From positions 1-25,456 of the forward strand of contig JBBSZB010000085.1 in assembly GCA_038044965.1 (NCBI GenBank): a DNA stretch of 25,456 bases. Direction: 5' to 3'. Positions 12,794 to 25,266 of this stretch are shown one piece after another (the first letter of the stretch is position 1; each line of letters begins with the position of its first letter). The stretch comes from Nanobdellota archaeon (lineage in GTDB: Archaea; Nanobdellota; Nanobdellia; Pacearchaeales; GW2011-AR1). The notes beneath the pieces are model-generated. The model saw only the letters and a list, made by a program, of their open reading frames with translations, had not been told where the DNA came from and did not search any database. Position numbers and translations under genes: made by a program.

Positions 12794-15700
12794 ATGGGGT
12801 CAAAAAAGAGTCTAGCGATGTTTATATTAGCAATAGTCTTAGTTCTTCCTTTGGCAAGTGCTGTTAGTGATGTTGCTTATCTTTATAAAAATGATATAAG
12901 AGTTGATCAAAACATAATCAATGAATTTAATTCTTTAGGCTTAAGTGTTGATAAAATACAGGAAAATAAAATTTCAACAACTGCTTTTTCTGAATATAAA
13001 ATGATATTTGTTGGAGATGAGCTTTTCAATAATCCTTCAAGAATACCAATAGGACTAAAACCTACAATTATATCTAATTATTATCATGGAGCTGTTTTTG
13101 GATTAACGGATAGTGATGGCATTTCTCAACTAGCTAATAACCAACCTTTAAATGTTAATAAAAACGGGCAAATTTTGCAAGTTTACACAGATGCTTTCTA
13201 TAGCGCTGGAAGTTCATTAGCAATACCTTATTATTATTTATCAGATGAAAATAAAGCTATAGGATTTACAAAAACTGCTGGAACTTATACAGGAAGTTCG
13301 GGTTTAGACATAGGAGATGTAATTTCATATGCTTCTAAAGGAACACAATTAGTAAATGGCAGGACGCTTAATAATAAAGTTTGTTTCTATGGTTTGGAAA
13401 CCATTAAAAATGGAAAGAGAAGCAGTGATTACTGGACGCCTGCTGCTAAACAAATGTTTGAAGATTGCGCTGCTTTTGTAATAACACAGTGTAGCAATGA
13501 TAGTGATTGTAATGATAACAATGCCCATACTAAAGATATATGTCTAAATCCTGGTAAGATAAATTCTCAATGTACTTATCAGAACATAACTTGTATAACA
13601 GATAGTGAGTGTAATGATAGCAATGCAAGAACAGTAGATCAGTGTATTAATGCAAATACTACATCAAGTTATTGCAGAAACACAGAAGTAAACTGTTTAT
13701 ACAATAGTGATTGCGGAGCAACTGGATTTATTAATTCAACTTTTTGCTTTAGTGATGATGTTTACAGAAATTTCCAAAATGCTACTTGTATAAGCCCTGG
13801 AACTTTACAAAGCCATTGTGATATAGAAGTAAATTCAAAGTTAATTGAACAATGTTCAGACACATGTTCAAATGGGCAGTGTGTTGATATAACCTGTTAT
13901 AATGATGGAGAGTGTAATGATTCTAATGCTTATACTAAAGATATATGCTTACATCCTGGAACAATACAAAGCTCTTGTACTTATCAAAATATTACATGTA
14001 TAACTAATGTTGATTGTAATGATGCTAATGCTTATACTCAAGATACATGTAAAAATCCTAACACACCTCAGAGTTATTGTGAATACAAAGACATAGTATG
14101 TATAACTAATGCTGATTGTGATGACAGTAATTATTTAACAAATGATATTTGTTTAAATCCTGGAACAATACAAAGCTCTTGTAATCATACTCTTGTAGAA
14201 TGTGTTTATGATGCTGATTGTAATGATAATAACACAAGTACAATAGATAGTTGTGTAAGCAATATATGCCATCATGATCAAATAAAATGTTTTATAAATT
14301 CTGATTGTGGTGCAAATTCTCAAACTGGTTTATTTTGTTCAAATGATAATGTGGCTCGAAACAGCACAACTTATACTTGTTTAAGTCCTGGAACTAAAAA
14401 TAGCTATTGTACTCAAAATAATCAAACCAATACAATAGAACAATGTAATGATATTTGTTCAAATGGGCAGTGTGTTGATATAACTTGTAGTTATGATAGT
14501 GAGTGTAATGATGAAAATGGAAGAACTATAGATAAATGTGTAAATCCTGGAACAAGTGCTTCGTTTTGCAGAAACACAGAAGTAAATTGTTTGAATGATT
14601 TAGACTGTGGAATAACTGGATATATTGAAGAAAACTTTTGTTTTAGTGACGATGTTTATAAAAAATATCAAAATTCAACTTGTATAGATCCTGGAACTTT
14701 AGATAGTTATTGTATACTTTCAGTAACTCCTCTTAAAACTCAGGAATGCAGCGATGGTAATAGTGAAACTTATGACTATTGCTCTCCCGTTATAGGTGAT
14801 GGTGCAATATGTAAGCATGATTTTATACAATGTAGTAAAGATAATGATTGCGGGACAACTCAATTAGTTAATGAATTTTGTAAAGGAGAAGATTTATGGG
14901 GCAATTATAGTGTGCCTGTATGTTTAGATGAAGGAAGTATTGATAGCCAGTGTTCATCAACAAATGAAGAAAATTTTATTGAAGAGTGTGATTTTGGATG
15001 TAGTAATGGTCAGTGTATTCCACCACAATGTACACAGAATTCACAATGTGGAAATGTAAGTGTGTCAAACAATTGTATTGGAGATGATTTGAATGTTACA
15101 ACTACAACTCCTTTATGTTTAAGTGGAAATTGCGGACAGAATAAAAATTCTCAGATAACAATTTGTGAGTTTGGTTGTAGTAATAATCAGTGTAATCCAC
15201 CTGAATGTACTCAGAATTCACAATGTGGAAGCTCTACAGAGGAAAATTTCTGTGTGGGAAATGATTTGCATATTTTAACAACTAATCCTATTTGCACTCA
15301 AGGATCATGTGGAAACAGCACTGATGAAGAAATTATAAATTGTGAACTTGGATGTTCTCAAGGAGCATGTTTAGAAGGTGGGCATGATGTTGCTTTAGAT
15401 GATAGTTTTGGAAATACTGGAATACAAATTAGAAAAACTTCTGGAGAGGTTGTATATGGTAATTTAATGTGTAATGAAAAATATAAAATAGATGTAGAGC
15501 CGAGAAACCTTGGAGACTTTTATGAAAATGTTACATTTAATGGAAGCATTGATGGATTGAATTTCCAGCATAATGACATACTTAATTTTGCTCCTGGAGC
15601 TTCTAGTATTAAGACAAAAATAATAAACATGACTCTAGCCCAAGGAGTATATAATATTAGTGTGCAGGCAAATATTAATGTAGATGATGATTTAGATAAT

Positions 15701-17380
15701 AATAAAGTTTCAAGAAGTGTTAGTGTTATTTGTGAAATTCCTGAATGCAGTGAAGATGAAGATTGCGGAGATATTGAAAGTACAATTACATGTGTTGGAG
15801 ATGATGTTGTAAATATAACAACAATTCCCCAGTGTATTTCAGGAAGCTGTGATGAAGACACTATTAATAATACAATAGAATTTTGTGAACTTGGATGTTA
15901 TCAAGGAGAGTGTATAGAAGGCGGGCATGATGTTGCAATTGATAAAAACTTAGCAAATAGTATTGGAGGAATTAAACTAGAATATCCTAATGGAACTAAT
16001 ATACCAGAGCATGAAGCATTAATGTGTAATCAAAACTATAAAGTAATTGTAAATGCTAAAAATTTAGGTGACTTTTATGAAAATGTTACATTTAATGGAA
16101 GTGTTGGAGGTTTATTATTCAACCATAATTCAATAACTAATTTTGCTTCAGGAGATTCAAGTTTGAAAACAAAAACACTTAATTTCTCACTTATTGAAGG
16201 AATGTATACTATAAATATAAGTGCATTAATTCCAATTGATGATAATTTATCAAATAATAATGCAAATAGGCATGTCCATGTTTTATGTCCAGCACCACCA
16301 CAATGTACTCAAAACTCTCAGTGTGGAAGTGTAAATGTGTCAAATAGCTGTATTGGAGATGATTTAAATGTTACAACTACAACTCCTTTATGCTTAAGTG
16401 GAAATTGCGGGCAAAATAAAAGTTCTGAGATAATAATTTGTGAGTTTGGATGTAGTAATAATCAATGTAATCCACCTGAATGTACTCAGAATTCACAATG
16501 TGGAAGCACAATTGTAAATCATTTATGTGTTGGAGATGATTTGCATAATACAACTATAAGTCCTTTATGTACTCAGGGAACATGTGGAAATTCAAGTTCT
16601 GAAACTATAGATTATTGTCAGTTTGGTTGTGCTAATGGACAGTGTATACCTTATAATCCAGAATGTGGTAATAATATTTTAGATGCTGGAGAGCAATGTG
16701 ATGATGGAAATCTTGTAAATGGAGATGGATGTTCATCAACTTGTCATACAGAAACATGCCAGGATGTATGTCAAGCAAAACCATTTGCATTTGATTTACA
16801 AATAGACAGAAGCAGTAGTATGGGATTACCTTTTGGGTTTATTGGATGGTTTCTTCCAAGACCTCCTAAAATACTTATAGCACAAATATCTGCAACTAAC
16901 TTTGTAGAAAAAGCTTTTAATAAAAATCCTAATACTTTAATTGGATTGACTACTTTTTCAAACACTGCTGCTAATATAAGAGGCCTTACAAATAATGAGC
17001 AGTCTTTGAAAAATGGAATATGGTCTATATTTGTGTTCGGCGGAACAAATTATTATAATCCTATTGTTCAAGGTGTAGATAAACTAGACACACCTGCAAA
17101 TACAAACAAGACAAAGATAATTGTGTTCCTTTCTGACGGAAGACCAAATGGATTTGATGGAGTGATTAAAGCAATACAAGCAGCTAATTATGCTAAACAA
17201 CATAATGTAAAAATAGTTACAGTTGGAATTGGCGGGCCTATTAATTTGAATGAAGAATTATTAAAAGATATGTCTAGGATAACTGGCGGAAGATATTACT
17301 TTGCAAGCTCTTCTATAGCTTTACAAGGAATATATAATAATTTAGCTGAAAATACCTGCCAAGAAATTTGTAGTGTTTAA
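12794..17380 (+). CDS. Giant secreted cysteine-rich repeat protein with two Ig/CARDB-like domains, a myxobacterial-type Cys repeat and a C-terminal VWA domain
   Basis: Signal peptide; ~114 Cys by hand count in CxxDxDC repeats; two GGHDVA...Ig-like blocks; ECGNNILDAGEQCDDGN; MIDAS DRSSS, GGTN, FLSDG. Confidence 0.9.
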   Translation: MGSKKSLAMFILAIVLVLPLASAVSDVAYLYKNDIRVDQNIINEFNSLGLSVDKIQENKISTTAFSEYKMIFVGDELFNNPSRIPIGLKPTIISNYYHGAVFGLTDSDGISQLANNQPLNVNKNGQILQVYTDAFYSAGSSLAIPYYYLSDENKAIGFTKTAGTYTGSSGLDIGDVISYASKGTQLVNGRTLNNKVCFYGLETIKNGKRSSDYWTPAAKQMFEDCAAFVITQCSNDSDCNDNNAHTKDICLNPGKINSQCTYQNITCITDSECNDSNARTVDQCINANTTSSYCRNTEVNCLYNSDCGATGFINSTFCFSDDVYRNFQNATCISPGTLQSHCDIEVNSKLIEQCSDTCSNGQCVDITCYNDGECNDSNAYTKDICLHPGTIQSSCTYQNITCITNVDCNDANAYTQDTCKNPNTPQSYCEYKDIVCITNADCDDSNYLTNDICLNPGTIQSSCNHTLVECVYDADCNDNNTSTIDSCVSNICHHDQIKCFINSDCGANSQTGLFCSNDNVARNSTTYTCLSPGTKNSYCTQNNQTNTIEQCNDICSNGQCVDITCSYDSECNDENGRTIDKCVNPGTSASFCRNTEVNCLNDLDCGITGYIEENFCFSDDVYKKYQNSTCIDPGTLDSYCILSVTPLKTQECSDGNSETYDYCSPVIGDGAICKHDFIQCSKDNDCGTTQLVNEFCKGEDLWGNYSVPVCLDEGSIDSQCSSTNEENFIEECDFGCSNGQCIPPQCTQNSQCGNVSVSNNCIGDDLNVTTTTPLCLSGNCGQNKNSQITICEFGCSNNQCNPPECTQNSQCGSSTEENFCVGNDLHILTTNPICTQGSCGNSTDEEIINCELGCSQGACLEGGHDVALDDSFGNTGIQIRKTSGEVVYGNLMCNEKYKIDVEPRNLGDFYENVTFNGSIDGLNFQHNDILNFAPGASSIKTKIINMTLAQGVYNISVQANINVDDDLDNNKVSRSVSVICEIPECSEDEDCGDIESTITCVGDDVVNITTIPQCISGSCDEDTINNTIEFCELGCYQGECIEGGHDVAIDKNLANSIGGIKLEYPNGTNIPEHEALMCNQNYKVIVNAKNLGDFYENVTFNGSVGGLLFNHNSITNFASGDSSLKTKTLNFSLIEGMYTINISALIPIDDNLSNNNANRHVHVLCPAPPQCTQNSQCGSVNVSNSCIGDDLNVTTTTPLCLSGNCGQNKSSEIIICEFGCSNNQCNPPECTQNSQCGSTIVNHLCVGDDLHNTTISPLCTQGTCGNSSSETIDYCQFGCANGQCIPYNPECGNNILDAGEQCDDGNLVNGDGCSSTCHTETCQDVCQAKPFAFDLQIDRSSSMGLPFGFIGWFLPRPPKILIAQISATNFVEKAFNKNPNTLIGLTTFSNTAANIRGLTNNEQSLKNGIWSIFVFGGTNYYNPIVQGVDKLDTPANTNKTKIIVFLSDGRPNGFDGVIKAIQAANYAKQHNVKIVTVGIGGPINLNEELLKDMSRITGGRYYFASSSIALQGIYNNLAENTCQEICSV
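15020..15232 (+). repeat. Intragenic duplication copy 1 (213 bp)
   Basis: About 90% identical to 16295..16507, no indels. Confidence 0.9.
16295..16507 (+). repeat. Intragenic duplication copy 2 (213 bp)
   Basis: See copy 1. Confidence 0.9.
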
Positions 17381-17419
17381 TTTTAATTATTTTATTTTTA
17401 ATAAATTATAATATAGAAA

Positions 17420-17755
17420 ATGGGTAAAGAAATAACACTTAAATATAAAATTGGAAGAATTGCACTAGGTGTTGCTTTAGGTGTAGCAGGTATAGGAGCA
17501 ATAAAAGGTCTTGATTATTACAATGCCAAGCATCGAGATAACATGCCTGGAAATGCTGGATATTTATCTTTTGATTCTTATGGCTTAAATCAACTTCATG
17601 CAGAATTCAAAGAAGTCCAAGCTAAGCATGAAGAACTTATGCAAGAGTATAAAGATCTTGAGAAGATAACCAAAACTTTTAAAGAAACAATGGAAGATCT
17701 TAACTCAAGCCTAAAGGAAACAAACCTAAATGAACAAAATAATACAGTTCATTAA
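17420..17755 (+). CDS. Hypothetical protein with N-terminal TM helix and coiled coil
   Basis: IALGVALGVAGIGAI followed by a heptad-like charged helix. Confidence 0.75.
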   Translation: MGKEITLKYKIGRIALGVALGVAGIGAIKGLDYYNAKHRDNMPGNAGYLSFDSYGLNQLHAEFKEVQAKHEELMQEYKDLEKITKTFKETMEDLNSSLKETNLNEQNNTVH

Positions 17756-17778
17756 ATTTAACTTTTATATTTATTAAG

Positions 17779-18062
17779 ATGACTAGAGATAATTTGTATA
17801 TAGGTTGTGGGGTAAGATCCTATCATATACAAAGTGATAAAATAAAAAAGTTAAGTCTTCAAGCAGTATTTATCCAATATTGGCTCAGTCACTAGAACAA
17901 GCAAATAAAAAACTTTCTACTTATTTAAATCAAGTTGGCTATCCTTTAAATTTTTGGGGCAAATTTGAGATTAGGGAATTAAAAGTTGGAAAAAGGACAA
18001 TTCCTCTTGAAAAAAGAGTGGAAATCATTGAGGAGATTTTACCTAGTAGATTAATAAGATAA
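17779..18062 (+). pseudogene. Split ORF (frameshifted at A-AAA-AAG, 17844..17850), ~94 aa if rejoined
   Basis: ATG 17779 frame stops after 38 codons; the -1 frame is open from 17841 to 18062 and contains the listed 60-aa ORF. Confidence 0.45.
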
Positions 18063-18110
18063 TTTTTAATTAATGGTTTTTGTTGTTGGAATTGGGTAAC
18101 AACAAAAACA

Positions 18111-18140
18111 TATTTCTTCGACGACAATAATGTTTAAAAA
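18111..18140 (+). promoter_or_regulatory. 30-bp promoter/operator motif incl. TATA box, copy 2
   Basis: TATTTCTTCGACGACAATAATGTTTAAAAA upstream of the 18182..22865 operon. Confidence 0.8.
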
Positions 18141-18181
18141 GGAAAGTTTATGTCATACCTAAAGAGTAATACTAAAACAAA

Positions 18182-18856
18182 ATGGAAAAAAATATTGCTT
18201 TGTTAGGAGTTTTGATAGGACTATTCTTGGTTTTATTGAGTTCTAGCTTTCTTGTCAGTGCTGTAACTGGGAAAATAGGAAATGGCAGAATGGTACTAAG
18301 TATGGAAGTTGGTGATACAATGAACAGATATGTTAATGTTATAAATGATAATAATGAGCCAGTTAATATCACTCTTTTTGTCACAGGTGATTTAAAAGAT
18401 GAAATGAAATTAGAAGAAACAAATTTTATACTAGAACCAAATACTGAAAAAAAAGCTTATTTTGTGTATAAGGCTAAAAAAGCTGGAAGTTATGAAACTA
18501 AAGTAAATGTTCAGTTTGCTCCTTTAAATGCTAAAAATGGTGTTGGACTTTCTTCTACTATTATAATTAATGTTTATGGCCAGGGTGATTTACTTGATGA
18601 TAATACAAATAATAATAGCACTGATTCTGAAAATAATACTTCTGGAGTGAATATAAGACCAAATATTGGAAGTGTTATAAAAAATACTGAAAATGGTAAA
18701 TTTAAACCAATTTATTTGCTTGGAATATCAACAATAATTCTTTTATTGGTATTTCTAGGACTATTATACTTTATTTATTCTAAAAAAACGAAAAAGGGTG
18801 AAAAAGGAGGTGTTGCAAATAATGGCAATAAAATCAAAAAGGAAATTAAGAAATGA
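18182..18856 (+). CDS. Secreted single Ig-like domain protein with C-terminal membrane anchor
   Basis: Signal peptide, beta-rich ~110-aa domain, N/S/T linker, TM helix and Lys-rich tail. Confidence 0.8.
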   Translation: MEKNIALLGVLIGLFLVLLSSSFLVSAVTGKIGNGRMVLSMEVGDTMNRYVNVINDNNEPVNITLFVTGDLKDEMKLEETNFILEPNTEKKAYFVYKAKKAGSYETKVNVQFAPLNAKNGVGLSSTIIINVYGQGDLLDDNTNNNSTDSENNTSGVNIRPNIGSVIKNTENGKFKPIYLLGISTIILLLVFLGLLYFIYSKKTKKGEKGGVANNGNKIKKEIKK

Positions 18857-21800
18857 GCAGTTTTCAAAAAATATTATTTATAATTATTGCAACATTCTTA
18901 GTAATTTTATTTTTAAGTATAGTAAGTGCTAAAGATATAGCAATTATTCTTCCTAATTCTCAAACTCCTGCTGGAGAATTAATTCCAACTATAACTAGCC
19001 TTGGATATGATTATGATATAATTTCTGAAGCAGAAATAGCTGGAACTAATTTATCTTTATACAAAGCAATTCTTGTTGGAGAAGGAAAGTTTATCGCTCC
19101 TAGTAATATTCCTGTAGATAAATATAATTCTCTTGTAATGAATTCAAAACACAGAATAGATTGGGGATGGAGTGCAAGAATATCACAATATTCAAGCCCT
19201 ACTTCACTAAATAAAAATGTTCAATTAATAAGCCCTATAACTCAAAATCTTCCAGATACATTTAGTGGATATAGTAGATTTGATCCAGATTTAGTAACAT
19301 ATGTTCTTAATGGTAAAAAACCCACAAATATTAAAATAGCTGTTTATAGAGGAACAGTTGGTAATAGTGTTATTGCATATTTATATCCTGGAGCTAAATT
19401 CTTAAATAATAAAGTTGCTCAGGGTAGAAGCCTTTATTTTGGAATGATTGACAGCAGATACTGGACTGATGAAACAAAAACTGCATTTGAAAATTCAGTT
19501 GTATGGATTGCAGACGGAGAAGATAATGATGGAGATGGCTATTATAGTAATGATTGTAATGATAACAATCCTAATTTGTATCAAAATCTTCCAGGTTATT
19601 TAGATAGCGATGGTGATGGATTTGGTTCTGGAAGTCAGATAATGATATGTTCTGGAGATGAACTTCTCACAGGATATTCAGAAATAGACGGAGATTGTAA
19701 TAATTTAGATTTTAGTGTAAATCCTTTAGCGGAAGAAATACCTTATGATGGAAAAGACAATGATTGTTCTCAAGGAGATATGAGAGATGTTGATGGTGAT
19801 GGGTTTGATGCTGAAATTGTTGGTGGTGAAGATTGTGATGATTTAGATGCAGAAATAAATCCTGATGCTTTGGACTTAAATATGAATTGTATAAATGATG
19901 CTCCTATATTTACTGGAGATATTGATGACTTGGAATGGTATGAAGATACAAATATCACACTTGATTTAAGTAATTATTTTGAAGATCCTGAGAATGACCA
20001 TCTTTTCTATGGGATAAATGCAACATCTAATGATAAAAATATAACAGCTACTTTTCATGGAAGTAATGTTACATTTACAACTACAAAAGACTGGTTTGGT
20101 GAAGACTGGGTTGTATTTTATGCTTCTGACGGAGAAAAGAAAACAATTAGTAATAATGTAACACTAACAGTTTTATCTATGGCAGATTATCCTGTATTTA
20201 ATATCATAGGAAATCAAACAATAAACGAAGATAATAATTTAACTTTAAACTTATCTCAATATTTCAGTGATCCAAATGGAGATGTTTTAGAATATTTTGC
20301 CGAATATCAAGAAGATAATTCACATTTAGATGTTTTAATTAATGGAAATACTGTTAAAGTAGTTCCTGAAGAAAACTGGTTTGGAGAAGAAATGTTATCC
20401 TTTAAAGCAAGCGATGGCGAGCATGAAACTATTGGTAATAATTTCAGCATAAAAGTTAATTCAGTTAATGACAAACCTGTTTTAAATATAGTAAATAAAA
20501 ATATCTTAGTTGTTGCTGGTGAAACTCTACAAATAGAAACAAGTGCTGAAGATGTTGAAGATGGAAGTTTAGTTGTGAATTATTCTTCTCCTGTTGATGG
20601 TAATGGATATTGGGAAACACAAATAGGAAATGAGGGTAATTATAAAATAAATGTTAGCACTAAAGACAGCAATAATGTTTTTTCAAGTGATATTGTCAAT
20701 ATAAATGTTATTTCTAAAATAGTTATAAATGAATTTGTTTCAGATTCTGATGAAGAATGGATTGAGCTGTATAATACTGGCAGTACAAGTGTAAATCTTA
20801 ATGGATGGGCAATTGAAGATGATACTGGTAATAATTATAGCTTATCTGGAAGTATAAACGGAAAAGGTTTTTTTGTTATTGATGATTATCCTTTCCAGCT
20901 AAATAATCTTGGAGATATAATAATATTAAAACATGGAAATTCTGTAATAGATAGTATAAATTATGGAAATTATGACGACGGAAATACTGAAGATAATTTA
21001 CCAGCTCCTGGAAATGAAGAGTCTTTAGGAAGAATTACAGATGGTAATGAACAATGGCAGATATTTGCTCATCCAACTAAAAATCTTCCTAATAATGCCG
21101 ATGTAATTTCTCCTATTATTTTATTATTATCTCCCAATAATACTGAAGTTATTAATGTTAGGAATGTTTTACTAAGATATAGTATTGAAGATAATTCTAA
21201 TAATTTAAATTGCCAGATTTATACAAATACTCAGGGTAATTTCAAATCTATAAACACCCAAATAGTTAATTCAAGTACTAATGATTTTCAACTTACAAAT
21301 TTAATTGATGGAAGTTATAAATGGAATGTAAAATGCTCTGATTCAAGAAATAGTGTTTTTGCAAATGAAAATTATACTTTTACAATCAGTGCTCCGGATG
21401 CACCTATATTACAGACAATAGGAGATAAAACTGTTCATGAAAATAGTTTGGTTACATTTAAAATTCAGGGAAATGATCCTGATAATAATATTTTAGTTTA
21501 TACTGCAACTGGTTTACCGGAAGGAGCTGAATTCAAAAATCAAGTTTTCTCGTGGATTCCTAGCTATAATCAGTCTGGAATGCATGAAGTAACATTCAAT
21601 GTTAATGACTCTGAATTTATAATAAGCCAGAAAATTAAAATAAATGTATTAGATACAAAAATACCTCCTAGTTTCAAAGATGCTACTCAGTGTGCTAATA
21701 AAAATAACAGTATTGCTTTAAGCATAGATAATCCTGATGAAGATGATGAATTTAATATTTTAGAAAAAATAAAAGTAGAGTTAAACATAGAAAATAATCT

Positions 21801-22662
21801 TGCTGATGATAGTGATTTTGATGTTGAAGTTCATTTGTATGATACAACTAATGAAGAATCAATTGAAAGTATGGATGATAGTATTGGTGTGGATCAAGGA
21901 GAGAACGAGGATCTAAAATTTGAATTAGAAGTTCCTAAGAAAACTGATGAAGACAATGAGTTTGTAATATATGCCTATGCTGAGGGGGAGAATGGAGAGT
22001 GTAATTCTGAGTATGTAGATGTAGATATTAAGAGAGAAGATGATTTAGTTGAAATAAGCAGTATAGATTTAAGTTCAACTAGTGTAAGTCCTGGAGAAAA
22101 TGTATTAATGCAAGTTAAAGTGAAAAATCTTGGAGCTGATGATCAAGATGTTAAACTTAAATTAGAAAATTCTGAACTTAATTTAAGTTTTGAAACAGAA
22201 GAGTTCAACTTAGATAAATATGGAAAAAAAGATTCTAAGACAATAGAGTTTAACATACCTATACCTACAGATGCTGAAGAAAAAAATTATACTTTAACAG
22301 TAACTGCTATTTACAATGATAAGGTAAGTGATGAAAAAACAATAAATGTTGTAAAATCAAATACTAATTCCAATACAAATACTGATACAATGCTGATAAA
22401 TGACCTTGGGAATATTAATTTAGGAAGTGGAAGTAATGAAGATTATTCTAATTATGAAAAAGTGGACAATGGTTTGATTCAAATTGGAAATAATAAACCT
22501 TCTACAACTTATTCAAATACAAATAATGTTCAGTATTCAATAAAAGATAATCAATATGAATTAAGTGAAGATTCTAAATATCTGTTTGTTGCATGGATTA
22601 TTGTTGGAATTGGAATGTTTATATTAATTATTGGACTAGTAGTTGCTGTGATTAGGAGATGA
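18853..22662 (+). CDS. Large membrane-anchored surface protein/adhesin (Ca-binding DxDGDG repeats, cadherin-like repeats, lamin-tail domain, Ig/CARDB-like domains)
   Basis: Signal peptide; DNDGDG/DSDGDG/DVDGDG repeats; INDAP/VNDKP repeats; IVINEF...EWIELYN (LTD); C-terminal TM plus RR; ATGA overlap with the upstream gene. Confidence 0.88.
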   Translation: MSSFQKILFIIIATFLVILFLSIVSAKDIAIILPNSQTPAGELIPTITSLGYDYDIISEAEIAGTNLSLYKAILVGEGKFIAPSNIPVDKYNSLVMNSKHRIDWGWSARISQYSSPTSLNKNVQLISPITQNLPDTFSGYSRFDPDLVTYVLNGKKPTNIKIAVYRGTVGNSVIAYLYPGAKFLNNKVAQGRSLYFGMIDSRYWTDETKTAFENSVVWIADGEDNDGDGYYSNDCNDNNPNLYQNLPGYLDSDGDGFGSGSQIMICSGDELLTGYSEIDGDCNNLDFSVNPLAEEIPYDGKDNDCSQGDMRDVDGDGFDAEIVGGEDCDDLDAEINPDALDLNMNCINDAPIFTGDIDDLEWYEDTNITLDLSNYFEDPENDHLFYGINATSNDKNITATFHGSNVTFTTTKDWFGEDWVVFYASDGEKKTISNNVTLTVLSMADYPVFNIIGNQTINEDNNLTLNLSQYFSDPNGDVLEYFAEYQEDNSHLDVLINGNTVKVVPEENWFGEEMLSFKASDGEHETIGNNFSIKVNSVNDKPVLNIVNKNILVVAGETLQIETSAEDVEDGSLVVNYSSPVDGNGYWETQIGNEGNYKINVSTKDSNNVFSSDIVNINVISKIVINEFVSDSDEEWIELYNTGSTSVNLNGWAIEDDTGNNYSLSGSINGKGFFVIDDYPFQLNNLGDIIILKHGNSVIDSINYGNYDDGNTEDNLPAPGNEESLGRITDGNEQWQIFAHPTKNLPNNADVISPIILLLSPNNTEVINVRNVLLRYSIEDNSNNLNCQIYTNTQGNFKSINTQIVNSSTNDFQLTNLIDGSYKWNVKCSDSRNSVFANENYTFTISAPDAPILQTIGDKTVHENSLVTFKIQGNDPDNNILVYTATGLPEGAEFKNQVFSWIPSYNQSGMHEVTFNVNDSEFIISQKIKINVLDTKIPPSFKDATQCANKNNSIALSIDNPDEDDEFNILEKIKVELNIENNLADDSDFDVEVHLYDTTNEESIESMDDSIGVDQGENEDLKFELEVPKKTDEDNEFVIYAYAEGENGECNSEYVDVDIKREDDLVEISSIDLSSTSVSPGENVLMQVKVKNLGADDQDVKLKLENSELNLSFETEEFNLDKYGKKDSKTIEFNIPIPTDAEEKNYTLTVTAIYNDKVSDEKTINVVKSNTNSNTNTDTMLINDLGNINLGSGSNEDYSNYEKVDNGLIQIGNNKPSTTYSNTNNVQYSIKDNQYELSEDSKYLFVAWIIVGIGMFILIIGLVVAVIRR

Positions 22663-23345: not shown

Positions 23346-23457
23346 TTCACTCCCTTTTTTTACTTTTTAAATTAAGATTCTTTGCTTTAAATTTCTTTTG
23401 TTTCTGTTTAAGCATTAATTAATCCCGTATAATCTCAAAAATCAAAACACTTATAAA

Positions 23458-23529
23458 TAAACCTTTTAACGGAAAGGTTTACAAAATCAAAAACAATAAC
23501 TTTAAAATAAACCTTTTAGAAAAAGGTTT
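23458..23529. repeat. Two REP-like palindromes in ~50-bp tandem units
   Basis: TAAACCTTT-TAACGG-AAAGGTTTA (23458..23481) and AAACCTTTT-AGA-AAAAGGTTT (23509..23529). Confidence 0.85.
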
Positions 23530-23538
23530 CCAAAAGTC

Positions 23539-23545
23539 TTATAAA
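23539..23545 (+). promoter_or_regulatory. TATA box of the SRP RNA gene
   Basis: TTATAAA ~20-26 nt upstream of the RNA 5' helix. Confidence 0.6.
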
Positions 23546-23564: not shown

Positions 23565-23826
23565 GTGTAGACTAGGCCGGCACGTTAGCTCTGTGCCATT
23601 TGCTCGCGAGCTTTAAGCAGGCTGCAAGGAGACGAGTGACTCAAAGTTTATTGAGTCTTTATTCGGACGTTGATGTTTTGTCCTGTTCGATCGTGCTCCT
23701 GCAAACTGGGTCAGATCTTGATCGAAGCAGCCCTAACCAGGAAACATGGTGCTTACAGGGTAGCAAAGCGGAGAAAGATTAAAGGTAGCTCAATAAGTTT
23801 TGAAGAGCAGATCTCTGAGTCTACGC
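23565..23826 (+). ncRNA. ffs: Archaeal signal recognition particle (7S) RNA
   Basis: Terminal helix GTGTAGACT/AGTCTACGC; Alu helices GGCAC/GTGCC and TTGCT/AGCAG with loop-loop complement AGCTC/GAGCT; long helix 5; helix 8 GGGTCAG...AGCAGCCC with asymmetric loop, then ATGGTGCTT as in archaeal SRP RNAs. Confidence 0.92.
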
Positions 23827-23862
23827 TGATTTTTATAAAAACTCATTTAAATAAACCTTAAA

Positions 23863-23970: not shown

Positions 23971-24047
23971 ATAACTTATTTTTAAATTCTGCAATATCTT
24001 TTCCTAATTTATCATTTATTTATAGATTAATTTCAACTTTCATTTAT
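23971..24047 (+). repeat. Intergenic repeat family copy E (left direct repeat of the pilin gene)
   Basis: 23976..24036 is identical (61/61) to 25287..25347; 74/77 over the extended match. Confidence 0.95.
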
Positions 24048-24096
24048 GATTAACCATTCTAAAAAACTATTTAAATTCAATTTAACTGTTTATTTT

Positions 24097-25266
24097 ATGC
24101 TGAATAAAAAAGGAGTTAGTGATGTTATTACAACTGTTCTACTTATTCTAATTGTTTTGGCAGCTATTGGAATTGTGTGGATGGTTATATCTAATTTTTT
24201 AAATGCTAGCACAGAACAAATTAGTTTAGGAGTTGGATTTTCACAGTTAGACATTATTGATAACTCCTTAAAATATTTCCCAAATGATTCTATACAATTG
24301 AGAGTTAAAAGAGATTCAAATCCTGGAAATATCACTGGTTTAAGAGTAATAGTTGAAGGTTCTAATGGAGAGACTCAGGCTTATGATGTAGATATTGAGA
24401 TAAAAGAGTTAGAGACTAAGACTATTAGTGTTCCTCTACAAGGAAAAGTAATTAATATTACTAAGGTTTCAATTGCTCCAAGAACTCCTATAAACAATAA
24501 AATAAAAACTGGACAGATTGTTGATGAAGAACATTTAAGCCAAGAGGTTGTTCCTGGTGAAGATCCTATTAACGCACTTATTATTGCATCACTTGCAGGT
24601 TATTGGAGTTTTAATAATGACAATGGAAATACTGTGATAGATAGTTCTAAGAATGGAAATAATGGAATAAATACTGGAGCTACCTTAGTTAGTGGGAAAA
24701 CTGGAAGTGCTTATAACTTTGTTAGTTCAAGTAGCAGTCATATCAGTATTAGTGACAGTGATATTTTTAACTTTAATCCAAATTTTAATTATAGTTATGA
24801 ATTCTGGATAAAACCAAGCACTATAACTGAATGGAATAGTGTTTGGACTCAACAATCGAGTACTAATCCTAATGATTTTTTTATTATATATGCTCAGACT
24901 ACTACTGACCCTGGTTGGGGGGCTGTTACAAAAGGTATTAGCGCTGGAATAGGAACTGGTAGTGCTAATATCTTTCAGCGTACAAAAAATAATGTTATTG
25001 ATGTGAATAATTATTATCATATTGTTATTACATACAATTCTTCAAAAGTTCAATCACAAAGATTTAATATATTTGTTAATGGAACTGATCAGACAGACAC
25101 TACAACTACTAAAGGCCAAGGAGTTTTATCTACTCTGAATCCAGCGACAGTTTGGTTAGGTGGAAATTCTTACTGGGGCGAATATTTCAATGGTGAAATT
25201 GATGAGGTTAGGGTTTATAACAGGACTTTAACTGACCAGGAAGTCAGTTATTTGTATACACATTAA
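24097..25266 (+). CDS. Type IV pilin-like protein (class III signal peptide) fused to a LamG/concanavalin A-like domain
   Basis: MLNKKG/VSDVITTVLLILIVLAAIGIVW prepilin motif; LAGYWSFNND...GKTGSAYNF...FNGEIDEVRVYNRTL LamG motifs; start at 24097 from TTTAAA 24070..24075. Confidence 0.92.
   Translation: MLNKKGVSDVITTVLLILIVLAAIGIVWMVISNFLNASTEQISLGVGFSQLDIIDNSLKYFPNDSIQLRVKRDSNPGNITGLRVIVEGSNGETQAYDVDIEIKELETKTISVPLQGKVINITKVSIAPRTPINNKIKTGQIVDEEHLSQEVVPGEDPINALIIASLAGYWSFNNDNGNTVIDSSKNGNNGINTGATLVSGKTGSAYNFVSSSSSHISISDSDIFNFNPNFNYSYEFWIKPSTITEWNSVWTQQSSTNPNDFFIIYAQTTTDPGWGAVTKGISAGIGTGSANIFQRTKNNVIDVNNYYHIVITYNSSKVQSQRFNIFVNGTDQTDTTTTKGQGVLSTLNPATVWLGGNSYWGEYFNGEIDEVRVYNRTLTDQEVSYLYTH

Follow-up and report, generated by a model that had tools for sequence, protein, structure and literature searches.

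A Pacearchaeota SRP RNA without helix 6 and with a UGAU loop on helix 8 suggests a two-component archaeal SRP

The RNA encoded at positions 23565-23826 on the forward strand of the window (the whole stretch of DNA analyzed, 25,456 nt) is a real archaeal SRP RNA, and the same genome encodes SRP54 and FtsY. The 262-nt gene, delimited by the archaeal covariance model and by covariation, specifies an Alu domain, helix 5 and helix 8 without a helix 6. With a probability of about 0.75 we read it as the working SRP RNA of a tiny Pacearchaeota archaeon (Nanoarchaeota/Nanobdellota, DPANN) with a two-component SRP (SRP54 and RNA) that is archaeal in sequence and Bacillus-like in architecture, and whose helix-8 tip, freed of the constraints of helix 6 and SRP19, samples bacterial loop classes. 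The architecture is seen directly in the alignments. That the RNA functions is what we would expect from indirect signs in the sequence, namely a conserved TATA box, covariation and a single gene copy in the genome (707 kb, 28% GC, 82% complete).

A search by E-value with the Rfam model Archaea_SRP (RF01857) gave a full-length match at exactly 23565-23826 (+), with 70.8 bits and an E-value of 1e-15, bearing out the identification as SRP RNA made in an earlier note on this DNA. The score lies below the RF01857 gathering score of 96.5, and a search of the whole window at the Rfam gathering threshold returned no match. Ten of 61 SRP RNAs from close relatives reach this cut-off; across the class it is passed by 86 of 151 genomes despite the same 40-position deletion, and the scores of relatives go up to 175 bits. 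The GC content of the gene is 48%, against 25% and 16% in its flanks. A predicted archaeal promoter at 23530-23545 (+) consists of an A-rich BRE-like stretch and a TATA box (TTATAAA at 23539-23545), 26 nt upstream of the RNA; by pattern, 46 of 48 loci of the order have a TATA-like box whose start lies 25-31 nt upstream. The T run at 23830-23834 (+), 3' of the gene, may be a terminator, to judge by its sequence, and is incompletely conserved among relatives.

The surroundings of the gene have features of their own. A palindrome, AAACCTTT-N3-9-AAAGGTTT, stands in two copies (23459-23480 and 23509-23529) just 5' of the SRP RNA promoter and in 43 copies genome-wide; it might be a REP-like element or a regulator site. 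A 25-nt AT-rich repeat unit ending in TAAATAAACCTT flanks the gene on both sides (23441-23465, 23491-23515 and 23835-23859), apparently resembling duplicated promoter (BRE/TATA) modules. Big surface or secreted proteins are encoded around the SRP RNA gene, at 12794-22662 and 24046-25266 of the window. The surface proteins nearby include one of 1528 aa with a VWA domain, one of 1269 aa with Ig, cadherin and lamin-tail domains, and a laminin-G protein whose N-terminal region, judged by eye, is like an archaeal pilin-type signal.

Helix 1 and an Alu domain with a loop-loop pseudoknot, features of archaeal SRP RNA, are present, and helices 1-4 and the pseudoknot covary. The 5' strand of helix 1 (23565-23573, +) pairs with 23818-23826, with two-sided changes at 9/9 pairs. 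The Alu 5' domain (23575-23623, +) comprises helix 2 (23575-78 with 23620-23), helix 3 (23579-97), an AUU junction (23598-600) and helix 4 (23601-19); its helices are 96%, 98% and 80% paired. The 5-bp pseudoknot (23587-91 with 23608-12) shows 100% pairing across 46 sequences, with compensatory changes at two pairs, and is intact, as the earlier note had stated; the AUU that the note saw in place of the Alu UGU does occupy the U-turn position. The UGUNR U-turn of archaeal SRP RNA is thus absent, with CAUU in its place. This position varies in the family (CAUU, CAUC, UGUU, UGCU, UAUU), and its junction falls 2 nt short of the UGUUAC or UGUAAC common elsewhere in the class. Because deviations from UGUNR are common in archaea and documented in several archaeal orders (PMC2905702), we regard the AUU as ordinary variation. 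In one relative (G043; L020:1501-1772, minus strand) an additional 11 nt, hairpin-like, are inserted where the Alu U-turn junction lies, and in another (G345) helix 4 is extended.

Helix 6, with the GNAR loop that archaeal SRP RNAs carry on it, is absent and not shortened, and helix 5 runs straight into helix 8. Model, folding and covariation place the strands of helix 5 at 23628-23701 and 23738-23816 (+). In the RF01857 alignment 0 of 40 helix-6 positions are filled, and the insertion point would be at about 23695/23696. The 5e motif, defined as four pairs interrupted by a 3-nt bulge (PMC2905702), is present at 23680-83 (GUCC) with 23758-64, and 43-46 of 46 homologues from the order maintain its pairs. 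The rod structure as a whole is 89% paired in these 46 homologues, compared with 74.5% in shuffles and 38-51% in slid controls, shows two-sided changes at 72 of 91 pairs, and is recovered unaided by RNAalifold; the helix-5 pairing of 23674-23686 with 23755-23770 has a probability of 0.67-0.89. Covariation among relatives, a check that the earlier note had proposed, supports helix 5, the pseudoknot and helix 8.

From the same letters the earlier note had drawn a different fold, with a short helix 6 (GGAC/GUCC, 23665-23683) beside helix 8, both tipped by UUGAU loops whose new tertiary contact would replace the SRP19 clamp. We give this fold scarcely any credence. GGAC and GUCC can pair, the inner A-U and C-G columns are pairable in 44 and 46 of the 46 homologues, and UUGAU does occur twice; but the pairing has a probability below 0.01 (0.006-0.007), forcing it costs 4.2 kcal/mol, its outer pairs are broken in 18 and 15 homologues, and its 81% pairing among them compares with 80% when shuffled. 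The same bases form covarying helix 5, where the GUCC strand pairs with 23758-23764 in 43-46 of 46 homologues as part of the 5e motif, and this covariation refutes the short helix 6. What was taken for a second UUGAU loop is a conserved unpaired UGA of helix 5, found as UUGAU in only 8 of 46 homologues and most commonly as UUGAC. The repeat is itself unremarkable, since any shuffled version of this RNA has about 27 different 5-mers in two copies. With a single apical loop and a second UUGAU that is not conserved, a contact between two such loops has no basis. Of the note's title claim, a short SRP RNA with both tetraloops replaced by UUGAU, the RNA and the helix-8 loop stand, and helix 6 and its loop fall away.

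The helix-8 sequence given in the note is confirmed; divided as CAGA-UC-UUGAUC-GA-AGCA, it is in exact register with E. coli 4.5S RNA. The helix (23702-23737, +), whose stems are 98-100% paired with compensatory changes, comprises an asymmetric loop (23702-07/23734-37), a stem (23708-11/23730-33), the SRP54-binding symmetric loop CAGA/AGCA (23712-15/23726-29), a 2-bp apical stem and the apical loop UUGAUC (23718-23723). The symmetric loop has the form CAGR/AGCA in 77 of 96 RNAs. In the apical loop UGAU, of the URRU type, stands for GGAA, and a U-C mismatch stands for the C-G closing pair; the GRRA tetraloop of helix 8 is absent, with U(UGAU)C in its place. The 2-bp apical stem has a probability of only 0.41-0.43 in the single-sequence fold; among the 46 homologues its pairing is 100%, with covarying UC/GA and CC/GG forms. 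That covariation contradicts the tip of the single-sequence MFE fold, GAU-CUUG-AUC with a CUUG tetraloop, which has a probability of 0.11-0.13 and breaks the symmetric loop, and which we rejected.

Within the family sample the tip is UGAY (UGAU or UGAC) in 28 of 28 RNAs and exactly U(UGAU)C in 25. A census of 97 RNAs of the class found GGAA or GGGA in 59 and UGAU, UGAC or UGAG in 38; the loop always measures 6 nt between stems, the second tetraloop base is G in 97/97 and the third is A in 94/97. The class also includes C(UGAC)G and U(UGAC)G as intermediates, and the closing pair decays to U-C, U-U or G-A. On an FtsY tree of 31 taxa, whose genomes were chosen to cover both loop types, the loop class changes about six times (5-7 in bootstraps), and at least two of these changes are forced by well-supported branches. 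The exact 20-nt pattern of the helix-8 tip also matches bacterial genomes and, among the matches checked, Rfam-confirmed SRP RNAs with the same tip come from Bacteroidales, Acholeplasmataceae (Acholeplasma), Phycisphaerae, Clostridium and Peptoniphilus. According to the literature, bacteria widely use URRC as an alternative, and URRU has been described from Bacteroidetes and Firmicutes (PMC4091067); a 2010 archaeal survey lists GRRA only for helix-8 loops (PMC2905702). Given the bacterial precedent, the loop change alone is a modest one. The backbones of GNRA loops are mimicked by UNAC loops (PMC5311481) and, over a C-C pair, by a CUAACC hexaloop (PMC12550061). By analogy, the U(UGAU)C tip probably adopts a U-turn of GNRA-like form above its U-C mismatch.

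The 3' strand of helix 5 contains a GUGC-like motif (23749-52), which we take to be the counterpart of the E. coli distal site, assuming the roles that G83 and C86 have there. The C of this motif lies 30 nt after the tip loop in 90 of 97 RNAs, the same spacing as that of E. coli C86. The motif is consistent with a preserved distal activation site as described for SRP RNA (PMC5454536).

The loss of helix 6 extends well beyond this genome. It is missing in 97 of 97 aligned SRP RNAs of the class, from 47 families, and the distance from 5e to the symmetric loop is 31-34 nt in all of them, where the RF01857 consensus has 75; it measures 31-32 nt at 115 of 120 metagenome loci. A pattern scan of metagenomes yielded DNA contigs only, each at least 1 kb long. 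Matches in the order are 260-272 nt long and full-length RNAs of the class 260-279 nt, with one exception of 320 nt, which was rejected as a helix-6 carrier because its extra length is an intron-like insert within helix 8. In that RNA (G425; L201:130-449, minus strand; same class) 46 nt are inserted in the SRP54-binding loop and form a perfect bulge-helix-bulge (a CUGG/CCAG helix with UCA and AGA bulges); once they are removed, the RNA is of ordinary form, 274 nt long and tipped by C(UGAC)G, and the insert resembles a tRNA-type intron. The helix-8 pattern is also carried by records titled Methanosarcinales, Dojkabacteria or 'bacterium' (L089, L153, L106, L087), one of which (L089) is an archaeal SRP RNA without helix 6; some of these titles look like mislabelled Nanoarchaeota bins.

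Four closed single-contig genomes from two families (G341, G354 and G363 of family f30, in which 0 of 12 genomes have an SRP RNA, and G326 of f19) gave neither an SRP RNA nor an SRP54 M-domain match. Since these four genomes gave no match to either, the RNA tracks its protein partner, and a loss of the whole SRP is possible in these four. G072 (same family, 2 contigs, 93% complete) has SRP54 and gave no SRP RNA match by model, pattern or BLAST; some other genomes counted as having no match (G005, G007, G063) are filter misses or contig breaks. A literature search, largely outside subscription journals, turned up no account of DPANN archaea that have lost helix 6 or SRP19, and SRP goes unmentioned in a 2026 preprint on 208 complete Nanobdellota genomes.

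A check of the genome for SRP19, SRP54 and FtsY, proposed in the earlier note, found the latter two. SRP19 was not found in this 82% complete genome, either as a profile match or by its loop-1 motif. PF01922 matched 0 of 301 genomes of the order and 0 of 151 of the class, and NF001973 matched 0 of 401 phylum genomes above its cut-off; these samples overlap, the phylum sample amounts to about 400 near-complete genomes, and kin among them are not independent. The searches used a loose first filter; NF001973 gave matches in all four archaeal controls, and PF01922 missed the Sulfolobus control. Two weak NF001973 matches in the phylum were at chance level and proved to be an MCM-like ATPase and an unrelated ORF. 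Given the completeness of the genome and the loose first filter, a very divergent SRP19 is formally possible. The SRP19-independent SRP suggested in the earlier note is nonetheless supported: the whole of helix 6 is gone, and neither the genome nor the phylum sample yielded an SRP19.

SRP54 (G000:C12) and FtsY (G000:C74) are closest to archaeal structures, and the SMT and RIAxGSG motifs of the SRP54 M domain are intact, as in M. jannaschii. In alignment, K309 and R312 of FtsY correspond to K399 and R402 of E. coli, whose numbering was verified against the gene itself, and the equivalent of K406 is P. In E. coli, K399 and R402 tether the tetraloop, where changes as mild as GUAA lower activity about 20-fold; mammals have lost such use, and the lysine, also found in mammalian SR, hardly matters there (PMC6781444). 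The K399 equivalent is K in 31/31 FtsY proteins, whatever the loop type, and in alignments also in P. furiosus and Sulfolobus FtsY. A search for a co-evolved change at this lysine gave none. As the lysine occurs in other archaea and in mammalian SR as well, its conservation permits a tether and does not prove one. The ftsY gene adjoins srp54 in 12 of 30 relatives; in G058 just 5 nt lie between its end and the 3' end of the SRP RNA gene, and in G043 the distance to that gene is about 2 kb.

In the two-component SRP that we favor, the SRP54 M domain would bind the CAGA/AGCA symmetric loop without SRP19, and an RNA-only Alu domain would reach the ribosome factor-binding site, as in Gram-positive bacteria. 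The exposed helix-8 tip may then act as a transient electrostatic tether for FtsY through K309/R312, after which the GTPase pair would move to the distal site 27-30 nt downstream. With neither a helix-6 adenine nor SRP19 to fit, the tip would be constrained mainly in shape and charge, and so could switch between GNRA and URRC/URRU as in bacteria.

The same architecture would also be compatible with a tip that has lost its role, FtsY being recruited without an RNA tether as in mammals and green plastids and the loop drifting neutrally. The roughly six changes of loop class on the 31-taxon tree and the decay of the closing pair would fit such drift, and there are parallels in the mammalian SRP, which ignores tetraloop mutations (PMC6781444), and in plastid loops, which vary freely (PMC4091067). 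Yet the loop is constrained, with a fixed length of 6 nt, G and A at its second and third tetraloop positions in 97/97 and 94/97 RNAs, and only two loop classes, the same two as in bacteria, of which UGAY is fixed throughout the family sample; we therefore think a functionless tip unlikely. Less likely still is that the helix-8 tip or the Alu domain is bound by another protein, either an SRP19 changed beyond recognition or a small basic protein of different origin, with U(UGAU)C as its recognition site. Near-invariance of the loop in the family (25/28) would suit a binding site, as would the GNRA-like hexaloops that serve for protein recognition in phage boxB RNAs (PMC12550061), but the identical loop occurs in bacteria without SRP19, the genome yielded neither an SRP19 match nor its loop-1 motif, and the two weak phylum matches were chance hits on other proteins.

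Acquisition of the SRP RNA or its S domain from a bacterium with a Firmicutes-type large SRP RNA would account for the URRU loop as well as for the absence of helix 6, and the Bacillus-type architecture, the 20-nt helix-8 pattern shared with bacteria and the scores on bacterial models (RF01854, 52 bits, cut-off 60; RF00169, 34 bits, cut-off 40) could be read that way. Against it, the archaeal model scores higher despite the deletion penalty (70.8 bits, with relatives up to 175), the promoter is an archaeal TATA promoter, and SRP54 and FtsY are closest to archaeal structures; moreover, relatives with GGAA have the whole architecture, and the loop intermediates lie within the class. We consider such a transfer extremely improbable.

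Compared with the canonical archaeal 7S RNA (RF01857; M. jannaschii, A. fulgidus; PDB 1LNG, 2V3C), the RNA shares helix 1, the Alu domain with its pseudoknot, a long helix 5 with 5e, the helix-8 symmetric loop, and archaeal SRP54 and FtsY as partners. It differs in that the 40 nt of helix 6 are absent, leaving no GNAR loop and no A-A clamp, SRP19 was not found, the tip is UGAU rather than GGAA, GGGA or GAGA, and the score is below gathering. With the bacterial large SRP RNA (RF01854; Bacillus scRNA) it has in common a length of about 265 nt, an Alu domain with helix 5 and helix 8, and the lack of helix 6 and SRP19, and the large SRP RNAs of Clostridium cavendishii and Peptoniphilus (L124, L142) have U(UGAC)C and U(UGAU)C tips; its sequence, promoter and partner proteins are archaeal, however, and its score on that model remains under the cut-off. 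As helix 6 and the GRRA loop are missing, SRP19 was not found and the bacterial large-SRP model gives 52 of the required 60 bits, the RNA is a variant and not a full member of either family. The small SRP RNAs of Bacteroidales (RF04183), with URRC/URRU loops (PMC4091067), have an identical helix-8 tip including the U-C closing mismatch but, unlike the present RNA, are hairpins of about 95-108 nt without an Alu domain. In Thermoplasmatales the helix-6 loop is AAAG, which shows that the SRP19 site can erode, and deletion of srp19 in Haloferax shows that SRP19 is dispensable in archaea, where SRP54 binds RNA without it (PMC2905702). These organisms keep helix 6 and the srp19 gene, whereas here both are gone in all sampled members of the phylum.

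How this state arose bears on the history of the particle. A helix-6-free, SRP19-free SRP might be the ancestral (LUCA-like) archaeal form, shared with Firmicutes, with helix 6 and SRP19 arising only once DPANN had separated from other archaea and eukaryotes, and with the bacterial RNA-tether mechanism still in use, here with a URRU loop. We hold this as a minor possibility: it depends on the absence of helix 6 in all DPANN phyla and on a DPANN-basal archaeal root, and the present data come from one phylum. Reductive loss in symbionts is the more likely history.

According to reviews, the archaeal SRP has a 300-nt RNA whose helices 6 and 8 are held together by an A-A contact, one probably present throughout the archaea, and SRP19 is reported from all archaeal subgroups (PMC2905702). 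The phylum-wide loss contradicts this account. In annotation, RNAs of this kind will be missed at the Rfam cut-off, which 10 of 61 close relatives reach. The series GGAA, C(UGAC)G, U(UGAC)G and U(UGAU)C within one class is a ready natural set for testing loop requirements. A large phylum lacking helix 6 and SRP19 would amount to a natural two-component archaeal SRP, allowing direct tests of what helix 6 and SRP19 contribute, of whether helix 6 is a late addition, and of whether archaeal FtsY, given an exposed loop, makes use of the tetraloop tether of bacteria.
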